Below, piece after piece: positions 29,865 to 40,196 of a stretch of 64,000 nucleotides of DNA. This DNA is from Escherichia phage JK1. Every line of letters begins with the position of its first letter. The stretch's first letter is position 1. The notes beneath the pieces are model-generated. The model ran no database searches. It was not told the origin of the DNA and was given only the letters and a program-made list of their open reading frames with translations. The position numbers were made by a program, and so were the translations under genes. The stretch lies in the sequence record MZ436830.1. The stretch is one strand, 5' to 3'.

Positions 29865-30338
29865 TTATTTGAACGATTTAACGTACTGAATAGAACCTTT
29901 ACTATTCACAAAGGCAATTTTACCATTTTTATTATACATGGTAGCAGTACGTTGATAACCATAAGTTTGTTTACCAGATTGATAACCAACTAATGCGAAA
30001 TTATCTTCGCCCATTTTATTCTGTTTAGCGCGAATGCGTTCATGACCATGTGCCATAAGAACCTTAGCATCACCGGTTGCAATGGATCGACGAGTTTTTT
30101 CATCTTCAACTGTATTAACAAAGTCGTCAAATGAATCAAATTTAGCATGAGATTTATTATACAGTTTTCCATCTACTGCATAATTATATCCCTGTACATC
30201 CATCTCAACTTCTGTACCATCATCCAATACAGCAGTGATTTTTTGACCTTTTTTAAATTTCAAAAGATCAGTAAAAGATTCAGCAATAATTTGAGAATTA
30301 ATAGCTGCTTCAGTGATAAATTCTTGATATGTTTTCAT
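29865..30338 (-). CDS. Internal-protein-like ORF with capsid-targeting-sequence (CTS)-like N-terminus
   Basis: 157 aa; N-terminus MKTYQEFITEA matches the T4 internal-protein CTS (MKTYQEFIAE) with an I-x-E protease-type site; immediately downstream of denV. Confidence 0.6.
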   Translation of the reverse strand: MKTYQEFITEAAINSQIIAESFTDLLKFKKGQKITAVLDDGTEVEMDVQGYNYAVDGKLYNKSHAKFDSFDDFVNTVEDEKTRRSIATGDAKVLMAHGHERIRAKQNKMGEDNFALVGYQSGKQTYGYQRTATMYNKNGKIAFVNSKGSIQYVKSFK

Positions 30339-34223: not shown

Positions 34224-34298
34224 AGCATTTCCTTTAGTTAATTAAGGGTTTTTATAATCCGTGGGAGTATTATACTCTACTCCCAAGAGTTTGTAAAC

Positions 34299-34631: not shown

Positions 34632-34687
34632 AATGTTCTCCTCAAAGTTATAGGCTCATAATATCTCAATCATGAGCCTGTGTAAAC

Positions 34688-35193: not shown

Positions 35194-35655
35194 TTATTTG
35201 ATTTGTTTAGCAGACCAAATGCGATCTTTAATAATTTTTTGGATGTCTTCAACATACTCTAGGTCATGAGCATGTGGATTATCTTTGAAACTATGAGCTC
35301 GCGCAAGTTTCTGGCCTTCGGTCTTAATTATCAAAAGTTCTTTAAGAATTGCTTCATACCTAGAGATAATTCCTTTAGCAATATTTTTTTCTTGTGCTGC
35401 TTTAGGGTCAGCCTTAGGAGCAGGTTTACCAGAAGGTTTTTCGAAAGCCGCACCAGTAGCAACCAGGCTTTTCCAGGCGGTGGTAACATAGTTACCCACA
35501 AAGCCTTCAGCTCTCATATCGTCATAGAACTTGTACCGAGATTCGTCAGAAGCATCTTTATAAGAATATTTACCAGCTTTAATAGCAGCAGTTGCTACAG
35601 CGCGAACATCTGAAGCGGATGCTTCGGTCATTAAAAATTGAGCATAAGTTTTCAT
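35194..35655 (-). CDS. Candidate packaged internal protein: CTS-like N-terminus, own late promoter
   Basis: 153 aa; N-terminus MKTYAQFLMTEA (CTS-like, L-x-E site); AGGAAA ribosome-binding site; TATAAATA 28 nt upstream; flanked by direct repeats. Confidence 0.55.
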   Translation of the reverse strand: MKTYAQFLMTEASASDVRAVATAAIKAGKYSYKDASDESRYKFYDDMRAEGFVGNYVTTAWKSLVATGAAFEKPSGKPAPKADPKAAQEKNIAKGIISRYEAILKELLIIKTEGQKLARAHSFKDNPHAHDLEYVEDIQKIIKDRIWSAKQIK

Positions 35656-35683: not shown

Positions 35684-35691
35684 TATTTATA
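35684..35691 (-). promoter_or_regulatory. Late promoter TATAAATA upstream of ORF 35194..35655
   Basis: Plus tatttata at 35684-35691. Confidence 0.5.
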
Positions 35692-35724
35692 CCAAAAAGC
35701 CCCAACCTTTCGGCTGGGGCTAAG
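35690..35724 (-). repeat. 35-nt direct repeat, copy 2 (terminator hairpin plus U-run), upstream flank of the CTS-like ORF
   Basis: taccaaaaagccccaacctttcggctggggctaag; hairpin 35698-35721 followed on the minus RNA by UUUUU. Confidence 0.7.
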
Positions 35725-35762
35725 CCTTGCGGCAACCTTGTCGGGGTTCCACCTGCTAAGGC

Positions 35763-36035: not shown

Positions 36036-36111
36036 TGGTCGAGGCAGTAGGGATCGAACCTACGACCCAGGACTTAGAAGGTCCTTGCTCTTCCTTCTGA
36101 GCTATGCCTCG
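36036..36111 (-). tRNA. tRNA-Arg (anticodon UCU)
   Basis: Hand-folded: 76 nt, CCA encoded, anticodon loop CUUCUAA, T-arm GGTTCGATCC. Confidence 0.8.
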
Positions 36112-36115
36112 TATT

Positions 36116-36190
36116 TGGCGGACGTGATAGGATTCGAACCTATAACCAATCGCTTAACAGGCGATCGCTCTGCCATTGAGCTACACATCC
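36116..36190 (-). tRNA. tRNA-Asn (anticodon GUU)
   Basis: Hand-folded: 75 nt, CCA encoded, anticodon loop CUGUUAA, T-loop TTCGAAT. Confidence 0.7.
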
Positions 36191-36194
36191 AAAT

Positions 36195-36281
36195 TGGTGG
36201 GGAGTGGTGGAGTCGAACCACCCGAGTCGCAATGACAATGGATTTACAGTCCACACCGCTACCTCTACGGGATAACTCCCC
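36195..36281 (-). tRNA. tRNA-Tyr (anticodon GUA), long variable arm
   Basis: Hand-folded: 87 nt, anticodon stem-loop GTGGA-CUGUAAA-TCCAT, type II variable arm, CCA encoded. Confidence 0.7.
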
Positions 36282-36290
36282 AAATTAATT

Positions 36291-36365
36291 TGGTGGCCCT
36301 GGGTGGAATTGAACCACCATCTGGCGATTATGAGTCGCTTGCTTGAACCTTCCAGCTACAGGGCC
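36291..36365 (-). tRNA. tRNA with CAU anticodon (Ile via modified C34, or Met)
   Basis: Hand-folded: 75 nt, acceptor GGCCCTG/CAGGGCC, anticodon loop CUCAUAA. Confidence 0.7.
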
Positions 36366-36366
36366 T

Positions 36367-36442
36367 TGGTGCTGATTGACGGAATCGAACCGCCGACCTT
36401 CTCATTACAAGTGAGTTGCTCTACCTACTGAGCTAAATCAGC
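36367..36442 (-). tRNA. tRNA-Thr (anticodon UGU)
   Basis: Hand-folded: 76 nt, D-arm GCTCAGTAGGTAGAGC, anticodon loop CUUGUAA. Confidence 0.8.
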
Positions 36443-36447
36443 AAAAC

Positions 36448-36537
36448 TGGCGGAGGCGATAGGATTTGAACCTATGAGTCGCCGGAGCGACTGCCGGTTT
36501 TCAAGACCGGTGCATTAAACCACTCTGCCACGCCTCC
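36448..36537 (-). tRNA. tRNA-Ser (anticodon UGA), long variable arm
   Basis: Hand-folded: 90 nt, anticodon stem-loop CCGGT-CUUGAAA-ACCGG. Confidence 0.8.
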
Positions 36538-36539
36538 AG

Positions 36540-36613
36540 TCTCCATACAAGGATTTGAACCTTGGACCTCCTGATCCCAAATCAGGCGCTCTACCAAACT
36601 GAGCTACACGGAG
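36540..36613 (-). tRNA. tRNA-Pro (anticodon UGG)
   Basis: Hand-folded: anticodon loop UUUGGGA; CCA not encoded. Confidence 0.75.
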
Positions 36614-36623
36614 TAAATTAAAT

Positions 36624-36697
<74 letters not shown>

Positions 36698-36702
36698 AAA
36701 TT

Positions 36703-36789
36703 TGGTGCGAGAAGTGGGACTCGAACCCACAAGGAAATCATTCCGCAGCATTTTAAGTGCTGTGCCTTTACCAATTTGACCATTCTCGC
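36703..36789 (-). tRNA. tRNA-Leu (anticodon UAA), long variable arm
   Basis: Hand-folded: 87 nt, anticodon stem-loop CAGCA-CUUAAAA-TGCTG; one nucleotide separates it from tRNA-Gln (dimeric precursor). Confidence 0.8.
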
Positions 36790-36790
36790 G

Positions 36791-36863
36791 CTGGGAATAA
36801 AGGACTCGAACCTTTGCATCCTGGAATCAAAATCCAGTGCCTTACCAACTTGGCTAATTCCCA
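36791..36863 (-). tRNA. tRNA-Gln (anticodon UUG)
   Basis: Hand-folded: acceptor TGGGAAT/ATTCCCA, anticodon loop UUUUGAU. Confidence 0.8.
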
Positions 36864-37465: not shown

Positions 37466-37755
37466 TTGCTCACCATATTAATGTAAGTATATTCAATACA
37501 TTCAAGACCCAAAGGATTCTTGAAAATATCATATTCAAGAGGACCTTTTTCCGTTTCAATAAAGAAATCAAAATTTACTGTATTAAATTTACGGTCTTCC
37601 TTCACTAATTTAACCTGAGAAGATGAACGGTCAATGTAAACCTTTTCAACTTCAAAACATGTTAAAATGCCATAATCATCAATCAAGGCTTTAGCTGCTT
37701 CTTGATCATATTTATATCCATTTTCAATGGATGATACTTTAGCATAAAGAATCAT
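37462..37755 (-). CDS. Hypothetical protein
   Basis: 97 aa; 4-nt overlap coupling. Confidence 0.5.
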   Translation of the reverse strand: MILYAKVSSIENGYKYDQEAAKALIDDYGILTCFEVEKVYIDRSSSQVKLVKEDRKFNTVNFDFFIETEKGPLEYDIFKNPLGLECIEYTYINMVSK

Positions 37756-37757
37756 TA

Positions 37758-38168
37758 TCAGCCTCTATCAACGATAGCATGAGTATGGGCATTTACGATT
37801 TGCCACCAGTCGAAACGATTGGAACCATAATCTGGTTTATTTTCATTTTCTTTAATGATATCACGCAGTTTATCTTCTGTTTCAGCATACGCAATTAAAT
37901 CATCATATCCGCCACAAGGATAATAATTATCACCTGCGAATAAAAGAAAATTTACCTTAGATGGATTTACGTAATAATGGTCTTTAGGATATTTAGTTCC
38001 TCTCCAATCAGTTACTTCAACATAACGGTAAGAAAATCCATTTTTACTTTCAATCCAACTCCACGCTTCAAAAGGAGTATTAAAAACTTTATCAGGTATT
38101 AAATTACCTTCAAAATGAGAAGGATTTGCATAATCCCCGGCATAAACATAATATTCGTTAATACTCAT
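37758..38168 (-). CDS. Hypothetical protein
   Basis: 136 aa, Tyr/Trp-rich. Confidence 0.5.
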   Translation of the reverse strand: MSINEYYVYAGDYANPSHFEGNLIPDKVFNTPFEAWSWIESKNGFSYRYVEVTDWRGTKYPKDHYYVNPSKVNFLLFAGDNYYPCGGYDDLIAYAETEDKLRDIIKENENKPDYGSNRFDWWQIVNAHTHAIVDRG

Positions 38169-38354
38169 CTATTCACCTTTAGAAATTTTATCCATAACGA
38201 TAGCGATTAAACCAATTAAAAATGCTACTACAAGTGAAAACACATTTTCTGCTGTAGTCAATAATCCACATATAAATCCAACAAACATTGAAAAACTAAA
38301 AGCGGAAGCAGAAATTGCAATAGCAACATTTCGAATTAATTCACAACGTTTCAT
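38169..38354 (-). CDS. Small membrane protein
   Basis: 61 aa; ISASAFSFSMFVGFICGLL and LVVAFLIGLIAIV hydrophobic segments. Confidence 0.45.
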   Translation of the reverse strand: MKRCELIRNVAIAISASAFSFSMFVGFICGLLTTAENVFSLVVAFLIGLIAIVMDKISKGE

Positions 38355-38382
38355 TTTATTCTCCTCGGTAGTTGATAGGGTA

Positions 38383-38412
38383 ATAGTATCACTACCCTAT
38401 CTAAAAGTAAAC
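38383..38412 (-). promoter_or_regulatory. Early promoter (GTTTAC-N18-TACTAT), copy of the module at 38683-38712
   Basis: Plus gtaaac 38407-38412, atagta 38383-38388; 24-nt ttgatagggtaatagtatcactac identical to 38672-38695. Confidence 0.5.
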
Positions 38413-38646
38413 TTATTTTTTACGAAAAATTGATTTATATTTATCAGCCCATTTCTCAATGACTTTTGCCGGGCCATAGATAACAAAGTAATCGCCAAAC
38501 TCTTCACCACCGAGTTGACCGAAATCATCTAATGCATCACGAAGAACTCCATGAGGCATTTCACCCATTTTATCTTTCTTGCCAGTGTAAATAAACTCAA
38601 CTTTTACATCAGCAGTTTCAGCAATAAATTCTTGATACGTTTTCAT
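38413..38646 (-). CDS. Internal protein with canonical CTS (IPI-like by position, just upstream of 57B)
   Basis: 77 aa from MKTYQEFIAE (exact T4 CTS decapeptide); GGAGAA ribosome-binding site; ORF track extends 6 codons upstream. Confidence 0.65.
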   Translation of the reverse strand: MKTYQEFIAETADVKVEFIYTGKKDKMGEMPHGVLRDALDDFGQLGGEEFGDYFVIYGPAKVIEKWADKYKSIFRKK

Positions 38647-38682
38647 TTTGTTCTCCAATTTCACATTTGTTTTGATAGGGTA

Positions 38683-38712
38683 ATAGTATCACTACTAAAA
38701 CCCCATGTAAAC
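38683..38712 (-). promoter_or_regulatory. Early promoter (GTTTAC-N18-TACTAT) for the internal-protein-like gene
   Basis: Plus gtaaac 38707-38712, atagta 38683-38688. Confidence 0.5.
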
Positions 38713-38724
38713 AACTTTGTGAAA

Positions 38725-39421
<697 letters not shown>

Positions 39422-39422
<1 letters not shown>

Positions 39423-40147
39423 TATAGTACCTTTAGTGTATTTTTAATTTTAGAAAAAAGTTCTTCAAGAGAACCATCGTTTGTAATTACTAAATCGCCA
39501 TCACGAATTGGCAATCCAGCTTCTGTAATATGTGTATCATTGGATTTTTGACCAGGACGAACTACATGAATTACTGTAGCACCCATCGCCCTAGCCGCAT
39601 CCATTTCATGATCTTGACGAGTATCAGGAACGATATAATAATCATAACCTGAGTTAAATTTATCAAGATAATCTAAAGCAAATAATTTTACCCAATACAT
39701 GCGGTCGAAGTTATTAACAATCAAATCCGTACCTAGGGCTTGCATCAGACGACGGACTGACCATTGATCTTCAATATTATTTATAACGTCAATAATCTTG
39801 TTAAATGCTACGGAATTAACTGATTCTTGTCCTTCGTCATCAAAAACAAACACACCCTTAATTGGGCTTTTACCATTAAGATAGCAAAATGCTTGTTCCA
39901 TAATCGTGATTACTTCTGATTTAGTCAGATTTAAATTAGTCTCACGATCATAGTCAATTCCTTCAAACTCTTTACGAGTTAAGCAAGGATAGTCAGTGTT
40001 TGCTGCAAATACTCCCCATGCATAAGCCAATGCATCCTTAATAGGACCAGCAAGTTGGTATTTAACTGCAGAATAATTGCTCATGATAAAATCAGCAGTA
40101 GTATCTTTTCCACTACGCTTTACACCGCTTAAAAAGATTAGTTTCAT
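39422..40147 (-). CDS. 1: Deoxynucleoside monophosphate kinase (gene 1)
   Basis: 241 aa from MKLIFLSGVKRSGKDT (P-loop); GAGGAG ribosome-binding site; ORF track extends 13 codons upstream. Confidence 0.85.
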
Positions 40148-40196
40148 GTGTTTCTCCTCAAATTTAATTAAGATTATAACACACAAAACTGAAGCA

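Follow-up and report, generated by a model that had tools for sequence, protein, structure and literature searches.

The window, by which we mean the whole 64,000-nucleotide stretch analysed here, comes from Escherichia phage JK1 (MZ436830.1), a Tequatrovirus. The region of interest matched 850 phage records by megablast, and the closest relative was phage KIT03, with 99.7% identity over 38169–39180. All genes around 38.4 kb lay on the minus strand. In the order of transcription, gene 1 for dNMP kinase (39422–40186) was followed by 57A (39180–39422), 57B (38725–39180), ip6 (38413–38646) and a homologue of trna.4 (38169–38354). The two genes next to ip6 formed conserved anchors. On the left, 57B encodes an Acb1 family anti-CBASS nuclease (Pfam PF23474, E = 2.6e-60) and showed 98% nucleotide identity to the T4 gene; on the right, the trna.4 homologue encodes a 61-aa predicted membrane protein (phrog_1692) and was 96.8% identical to T4 trna.4 at the nucleotide level. 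Further downstream there were three more small ORFs and then ten tRNA genes (36036–36863). This arrangement, 57B to trna.4, is the classic hyperplastic ipI locus of T4-like phages. No homing endonuclease gene was found inside the tRNA cluster of the window; such a gene was present in the tRNA cluster of some relatives, ~1.8 kb from the locus. The ORFs from 36.9 to 40.2 kb included no recombinase or integrase, so that the locus does not qualify as integron-like. A plus-strand ORF of 60 aa (38551–38733) ran antisense to ip6 and was taken as non-coding on its position alone.

The ip6 gene encodes a protein of 77 aa that begins with a capsid-targeting sequence (CTS), MKTYQEFIAE, followed by TADV. 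The CTS of T-even phages ends in the prohead-protease motif (I/L-x-E). The same decapeptide was found in Ip9 and in the ip87 variants. Ip6 belonged to phrog_8111, "internal virion protein" (E = 3.9e-51); its protein was detected by tblastn in 245 phage records and also occurs in T6, and the gene is labelled ip6 or ipVI in phages VR20, VR25, and GiZh. With its CTS and its PHROG family, Ip6 is a putative internal (injected) head protein. No Pfam family and no PDB relative were matched by Ip6, and a literature search returned no paper on its function. The sequence-only reading had called the gene IPI-like, which held for its position and its CTS. The homology did not: BLASTP aligned Ip6 with T4 IPI over residues 1–16 only, of which 7 were identical, and the CTS was the sole part that the two proteins shared, without any similarity between the mature proteins. 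By analogy with Ip1–3, each of which inhibits a distinct GmrSD (type IV restriction enzyme), Ip6 may be an injected anti-defence protein. A second IP locus in the window carried a CTS gene of 157 aa (29865–30338). Its upstream region differed from that of ip6, and the presence of the same module at this second IP locus was rejected.

The ip6 gene was bracketed by a direct repeat of 24 nt in intergenic DNA, TTGATAGGGTAATAGTATCACTAC on the plus strand and GTAGTGATACTATTACCCTATCAA on the coding strand. The upstream copy was located at 38672–38695, where it spanned the −10 plus the start-site region of the module described below, and the downstream copy, with the same letters, at 38372–38395. The repeat had been noticed in the sequence-only reading, and both the exact identity of the copies and their position on either side of the 77-aa CTS gene were confirmed. 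The two copies were the sole matches to the 24-mer at ≤3 mismatches in the 64 kb, and none was obtained in 100 dinucleotide shuffles. The repeat continued to 41 nt at 80% identity (38372–38412 and 38672–38712), including the −35 hexamer, and the leaders formed a second short repeat, TTTCATTTTRTTCTCC, with 94% identity. In the closest relatives, the two cores differed from each other at 1–2 nt, which indicated that exact identity itself is not conserved. Moreover, GTG.TAYTAT, CTATCAAC, and the GGAG leader within the repeat represent the general T4 early-promoter and leader consensus and were also found at other promoters of the window. Since these other promoters carry parts of the repeat, some of the identity reflects functional constraint.

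Each copy of the repeat was part of a longer module on the minus strand. Module A, the 57B–ip6 intergenic cassette (38647–38724), read TAATTTCACAAAGTT-GTTTAC-ATGGGGTTTTA-GTAGTGATACTATTACCCTATCAA-AACAAATGTGAAATTGGAGAACAAA-ATG on the coding strand. It comprised the upstream element TAATTTCACAAAGTT, a −35 GTTTAC (38707–38712), an 18-nt spacer, and a −10 TACTAT (38683–38688), followed by the 3′ arm CCCTATCAA and the leader AACAAATGTGAAATTGGAGAACAAA. The promoter scan returned it as TTTACA-17-TACTAT with extended TG. In relatives, modules of this type also preceded Ip6 or Ip9. The cassette between ip6 and trna.4, module B (38355–38412), read TAA-GTTTAC-TTTTAGATAGG-GTAGTGATACTATTACCCTATCAA-CTACCGAGGAGAATAAA-ATG. 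Its −35 GTTTAC (38407–38412) directly adjoined the ip6 stop codon, and was followed by the spacer TTTTAGATAGG, a −10 TACTAT (38383–38388), the same 3′ arm CCCTATCAA, and the leader CTACCGAGGAGAATAAA.

The early promoter GTTTAC-N18-TACTAT that had been proposed for each copy was indeed present at both sites, on the coding (minus) strand at 38383–38412 and 38683–38712. The same sites fitted the promoter consensus of the PST/T4 PeSLs, TTTACW-N17-TAYWAT (Comeau 2014, PMC4122927), as TTTACA-N17-TACTAT at 38683–38712 and TTTACT-N17-TACTAT at 38383–38412. The annotation of phage Lutter has promoter features at the two corresponding positions. The gene strand of the window contained fourteen GTTTAC-N18-TAYWAT sites, and several of the early-type promoters had TTTCACAAA upstream, GTGGTAYTAT, and ACAACTATCAACTAC..GGAG downstream (CTATCAACTAC..GGAG). 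We predict from these matches that each module serves as an early promoter of the gene that follows it.

A leader, GGAGAAYAAAATG, followed the promoter core in each module, and both leaders contained GGAGAAYAAAATGAAA. The similarity of the leaders had been remarked on in the sequence-only reading and was borne out. The motif was not peculiar to this pair: six occurrences were counted in the window, where 0.34 were expected, and it equals the RegB/S1 Shine-Dalgarno consensus. In T4, RegB together with ribosomal protein S1 requires the 11-nt GGAGAAUAAAA for efficient cleavage of early mRNAs (Durand et al., 2006, PMC1702504). The site in module A, GGAGAACAAAA (38646–38656, minus strand), matched this sequence at 10 of 11 positions, whereas that in module B, GGAGAATAAAA (38354–38364, minus strand), which precedes the trna.4 homologue, was the exact consensus. 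These matches would place the early mRNAs of ip6 and trna.4 among the candidate RegB/S1 substrates. As in the RegB/S1 sites of T4, both were intergenic and overlapped the Shine-Dalgarno sequence. The motif accounts for the likeness of the leaders but not for the identity of the promoter cores.

Both modules were also predicted to fold, a feature absent from the sequence-only reading. In module B, a 12-bp hairpin, GAUAGGGUAGUG-AUAC-UAUUACCCUAUC, was formed around the −10 (38374–38401, minus strand; −17.4 kcal/mol, z = −2.65). In module A, an extended imperfect hairpin of 72 nt covered the whole module (38656–38727, minus strand; −29.1 kcal/mol, z = −5.86), reaching from the stop codon of 57B as far as the first G in the ip6 Shine-Dalgarno sequence, and none of 200 shuffles folded as well. 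Module A folds as one long hairpin because its leader AAAACAAATGTGAAATTG repeats the upstream TAATTTCACAAAGTTGTTT in inverted orientation; the outer stem between the upstream element and the leader gave z = −4.8 in a duplex test. A general pairing of upstream elements with leaders was ruled out, since only the U1+L2 type was significant and eight other types had z from +1.2 to −1.1. The hairpin around the −10 was found in all module types and in other genera, and folded better than shuffles (z from −2.3 to −5.9). Within one module type, ST0 (a Mosigvirus) and LF82-2 had it at the same position but with different letters. Among 27 distinct modules compared in a fixed register, 79.9% of the cells were paired and five pairs had changed on both sides (for instance, AU and GC replaced each other at columns 15–36 and 16–35). 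The covariation support for this hairpin is modest, given that the sequences are related and recombinant and that the S2 type uses another register.

Both stems lacked a U-run behind them, and the terminator scan was empty in both modules. The modules were thus rejected as Rho-independent terminators, in which a GC-rich stem precedes a U-run, and the sequence lends no support to termination, the defining role of the stem-loop in classic PeSLs. The region 38100–38900 gave no Rfam match at E ≤ 1. It is possible but unlikely that module A is more than a promoter, with its long hairpin forming only in read-through transcripts, such as late ones from the TATAAATA described below, and not in those started at its own promoter. 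If so, the hairpin could split the mRNAs into two classes that differ in processing, stability or RegB access, and the corresponding DNA cruciform could turn the site into a hot spot of recombination. Two points count against such a role: the outer stem was limited to U1+L2, and most of the Shine-Dalgarno sequence was left unpaired. A late-promoter-like TATAAATA was located on the gene strand inside gene 1 (39778–39785). It is speculative that late read-through from this site could supply the transcription needed for packaging Ip6.

The interval from 57B to trna.4 was compared in 20 genomes, the window and 19 others, and every intergenic module was classified. There were 12 arrangements with 0–4 ip genes, and exactly one module was located before every gene. 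Klebsiella phage Roth21 had no ip gene, and 57B was followed by trna.4. Single ip genes were Ip6 in the window, TadeuszReichstein, PaulHMueller, and slur07 (and also in KIT03), ipI in T4 and ESh18, Ip5 in Lutter, and an 87-aa ip gene in Mosigvirus ST0. Two ip genes occurred as Ip5-Ip6 in T6, OE5505, vB_Eco_Some, QOTSP, and AndreasVesalius, as Ip5-ipI in RB14, as Ip9-Ip7 in Pu-Krd-SF6, and as ipI-Ip7 in LF82-2. Three were found in RB32 (Ip5-Ip9-Ip7) and F13076 (Ip9-Ip7-Ip8), and four in RB15 (Ip5-Ip9-Ip7-Ip8). By blastn, module B had matches at 1549 places in 769 phage records, all of them in unannotated intergenic DNA. Thus, the sequence-only reading, which had staked its proposal on repeats that are kept among relatives and on gene content that is not identical in all of them, agreed with the comparison on both counts. 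In Roth21, a stretch of 71 nt comprising the core, the leader, and the first trna.4 codons was 93% identical to the window, whereas its neighbors 57B, trna.4, and 57A were 70, 64, and 58% identical, respectively.

The modules were mosaics of four kinds of segments, namely upstream segment, spacer, conserved core, and leader. The upstream segment went along with the 3′ end of the gene before it, the spacers were of types S1, S2, and S3 and carried the 5′ arm of the hairpin, and four leader types (L1 to L4) were distinguished. Spacers S2 and S3 each occurred with both L1 and L3, the four combinations accounting for 2, 8, 4, and 13 modules. Some chimeras joined an S2 or S3 5′ arm to an S1-type 3′ arm, and the hairpin was destroyed. 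Neither the full set of combinations nor the chimeras with a broken hairpin could have arisen without crossovers inside the core that the modules share. In addition, one gene could have several leaders: Ip6 was preceded by L2 or L4; for Ip9, the leader was L2 or L3 and the CTS had three variants. The same gene with different leaders and CTS spellings indicated that exchange also occurred between the leader and the coding start.

Pairwise comparisons located the boundaries more closely. The flanks of ESh18 were 97.7% identical to the window, and a T4-type ipI was found in the place of ip6. On its left side, homology was unbroken from 57B through the −35, and past that point the shared core alone matched; on the right side, homology picked up again at GTGATACTATTACCCTATCAACTACCGAGGAG. 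Phage vB_Eco_Some equaled the window plus one Ip5 cassette, and the 3′ end of its Ip5 (GAAGATTTAAAATAATTTCACAAAGTTGTTTAC) repeated the 3′ end of 57B plus the upstream element. The modules upstream of trna.4 in T4 (between ipI and trna.4) and Lutter were of module A type in their 5′ half and of module B type in their 3′ half. The module between ipI and trna.4 in RB14 was, letter for letter, the junction predicted from recombination between the two 24-mers of the window. In this comparison, the modules were conserved, the content between them was variable, and the boundaries of the variation lay within the modules. The breakpoints inside modules, the chimeric modules and the full set of segment combinations support the modular exchange by homologous recombination that had been suggested for the pair of repeats.

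Here, we propose that the cassettes very probably have two roles, as early promoters with RegB-sensitive leaders, as read from their sequence, and as homology patches for the exchange of ip genes, as seen from the comparison. Each small gene between 57B and trna.4 would have its own intergenic cassette of ~60–80 nt, consisting of a T4-type early promoter, a hairpin at the −10, and a Shine-Dalgarno leader, followed by ATGAAA. In the first role, the cassettes would drive early transcription of ip6 and trna.4 by the host RNA polymerase, and the GGAGAAYAAAA leader would make the early mRNAs substrates of the T4 RegB/S1 endoribonuclease. In the second, the shared cores would serve as short patches of homology, along with the shared upstream element and the first codons of the ip genes, which encode the CTS. 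On these patches, the general recombination of the phage could insert, delete or replace ip cassettes, so that the set of injected anti-defence proteins would come to vary from phage to phage. Between the two copies in the window, recombination is predicted to remove ip6, release a circle of 300 bp, and leave the junction ...GTTTACATGGGGTTTTAGTAGTGATACTATTACCCTATCAACTACCGAGGAG... This predicted deletion junction resembles the trna.4-upstream modules of T4, Lutter, and RB14, which are natural equivalents of such junctions. A length of 24 nt is short even for T4 recombination, which counts against the exchange model; for T4 recombination, under 50 bp has been cited as sufficient (Arbiol 2010, PMC2839356).

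The similarity of the modules might instead result from functional constraint alone, that is, from selection for strong early promoters and RegB-sensitive leaders, with no special role for recombination. The fourteen promoter sites on the gene strand, several of which share flanking motifs, and the excess of the leader motif, equal to the RegB/S1 consensus, are in line with this explanation. However, no other promoter in the window came within 3 mismatches of the 24-mer, homology between near-identical phages broke off inside the modules, and constraint alone would not produce chimeric modules in all four segment combinations, including those that break the hairpin. Some of the likeness between the modules is thus due to constraint, which leaves the breakpoints, the chimeras, and the unique 24-mer unexplained; as a sufficient account, we regard it as quite improbable. 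It is more improbable still that the repeats are passive scars of an old tandem duplication of a promoter and an ip gene whose coding parts have since diverged. The promoter, the leader, and the CTS codons are common to the ip genes, just the parts that selection would retain after a duplication, but the mature ip proteins are unrelated (Ip6 and IPI align over 16 residues only) and the trna.4 homologue has a module without having a CTS. Moreover, phages with flanks of 97–98% identity differ by whole cassettes, which points to recent events rather than to an old one, and the segments of the modules reassort.

Exchange at these places could also be site-specific and independent of general homologous recombination, if the hairpin or palindrome of the module were recognized by a specialized protein, be it a structure-specific nuclease, homing endonuclease or integron-like recombinase. 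This possibility has been raised for PeSLs (Arbiol 2010, PMC2839356). In its favor, the −10 hairpin of every module folded better than shuffles, the same hairpin position was reached from different sequences in ST0 and LF82-2, and a homing endonuclease is found nearby in the tRNA cluster of some relatives. However, that cluster has no endonuclease gene in the window, the locus encodes no recombinase or integrase, and crossovers were located at several places (upstream element, core, and leader–CTS), which fits homology better than a single cut site. We consider a site-specific mechanism the least probable of the explanations.

If the cassettes act as proposed, as expression signals and as recombination linkers at the same time, incoming ip genes would be ready for expression and the essential genes would remain undisturbed. 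The locus shows T4-like phages reshuffling their injected anti-restriction proteins, which is relevant to phage host range and to the design of therapeutic phages.

The internal proteins IPI, IPII, and IPIII of T4 are the known counterparts of Ip6, which is likewise small, bears an N-terminal CTS, holds the ipI position, and falls into an "internal virion protein" PHROG. Beyond the CTS, no sequence similarity links Ip6 to IPI, and Ip6 has no Pfam family and no solved relative.

The idea of exchange at this locus is already published, by Repoila 1994, Arbiol 2010, and Comeau 2014, and in a GenBank note: the record of RB32 describes Ip7 and Ip9 as "flanked by 43 bp direct repeat". The RB15 entry Z35082 (Repoila) has Ip5, Ip9, Ip7, and Ip8 between 57B and trna.4. 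According to Arbiol 2010 (PMC2839356), PeSL-like elements were seen at two IP loci by Repoila 1994. As described by Arbiol 2010 and in GenBank records, that work (Repoila, Tetart, Bouet & Krisch, EMBO J 13:4181) deals with the same locus and with CTS-bearing Ip genes, and its elements are of the same type, a T4 early promoter with an AT-rich stem-loop, repeated between ip genes; nothing essential distinguishes them from the modules of JK1, which has the arrangement with Ip6 alone. The T-even IP elements have been described as T4 early promoters with weaker AT-rich stem-loops and proposed as the cause of the plasticity of these loci (Arbiol 2010, PMC2839356). Later, the T4/PST pair was added to the phages with PeSLs, and the connection with the IP locus was drawn again (Comeau 2014, PMC4122927).

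Like the window modules, the PeSLs of RB49/phi1, PST/T4, and nt-1/KVP40 are intergenic composites that combine an early promoter and a stem-loop with a Shine-Dalgarno sequence and start codon. Elements of both kinds recur in hyperplastic regions and lie beside indels between close relatives, and both have been proposed as homology "linkers" for cassette shuffling. A subclass with a stem-loop overlapping the −10 has already been described. The T-even IP elements were regarded as analogues and not homologues of the RB49 PeSLs, from which they differ in having a T4 early promoter rather than a sigma-70 consensus and stems without polyG/polyC (Arbiol 2010, PMC2839356); the JK1 stems further differ from classic PeSLs in lacking the U-run. 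The spacing of the promoters, the stem-loop, the repeated intergenic position in a hyperplastic region, and the association with indels and replacements were all found at the JK1 locus. At the level of sequence, the elements in the window thus qualify as PeSL-like cassettes, as known from Repoila 1994, Arbiol 2010, and Comeau 2014, to which the present analysis adds a clean and well-documented example and a survey of breakpoints and chimeras over 20 genomes that supports crossovers within the ~24-nt core.

In phage vB_Eco_Some, the C-termini of Ip5 (...EDLK*) and 57B (...DDLK*) ended in identical last codons, GATTTAAAATAA, as also observed in T6, RB14, and RB32, and after GATTTAAAATAA both genes continued into the same upstream element, the module segment 5′ of the -35. 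The two repeat copies were located at about 2320–2345 and 2650–2675 of the vB_Eco_Some sequence (L002). These shared last codons and upstream element indicated that the Ip5-flanking repeat extends into both coding regions, which would be as expected for cassette integration by homologous recombination.

An "empty site", without an ip gene at the locus, was found in Klebsiella phage Roth21. A 71-nt stretch of this phage (L010, 2001–2071) was 93% identical to window positions 38323–38395 and comprised the promoter core, the leader, and the first trna.4 codons; the flanking genes in Roth21 were just 58–70% identical to those of the window. This 93%-identical stretch was common to the window coliphage and 117 Klebsiella phage records.

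In the window, the entire 57B–ip6 intergenic region (38656–38727, minus strand) formed a 72-nt imperfect palindrome (z = -5.86), in which the leader was an inverted copy of the promoter upstream element. Its outer stem was not found in the other module types tested. Upstream of ip6, a late-promoter box TATAAATA lay on the gene strand within gene 1, encoding dNMP kinase (39778–39785, minus strand), and could be the source of late transcripts through 57A, 57B, and ip6; the motif occurred 12 times in the window against 9.8 expected, which was not in excess of chance.

Downstream of trna.4, PaulHMueller (L003, 1359–1739) and QOTSP (L004, 1441–1821) contained an extra 126-aa gene, located between the homologs of the 97-aa and 136-aa ORFs of the window (about 37755–37760), and in QOTSP the 171-aa ORF of the window was replaced by different small genes. 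Therefore, cassette-type variation extends downstream of trna.4. Two further early-type promoters with an inverted repeat around the -10, GGGAGTA..TATAAT..TACTCCC (34269–34298) and AGGCTCAT..TATTAT..GAGCCT (34658–34687), both on the minus strand, had the same hairpin design as the ipI-locus modules, and small ORFs of unknown function followed them.

A 157-aa ORF (29865–30338, minus strand; Pfam DUF7412; phrog_3155, "internal virion protein") with the capsid-targeting sequence MKTYQEFITE probably belongs to the second IP locus; the ipI-locus module was not present upstream of it. Directly downstream of the tRNA cluster, and in neither classical IP locus, was a 153-aa ORF (35194–35655, minus strand) of the function-unknown family phrog_2280, whose N-terminus, MKTYAQFLMTEASA..., was similar to the capsid-targeting sequence of internal proteins. 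It was preceded by a GC-rich hairpin with a T-run, agccccagccgaaaggttggggcttttt (about 35700–35735, minus strand), and, between this hairpin and the ORF, by a perfect late-promoter box, TATAAATA (35684–35691, minus strand). This ORF may encode an extra packaged protein that is expressed late.

The tRNA cluster itself comprised ten contiguous genes (Arg, Asn, Tyr, Met, Thr, Ser, Pro, Gly, Leu, and Gln; 36036–36863, minus strand). No homing-endonuclease ORF was found among these ten genes, in contrast to T4, which carries segB within its tRNA cluster, and to TadeuszReichstein and QOTSP, in which an endonuclease adjoins tRNA-Gly.
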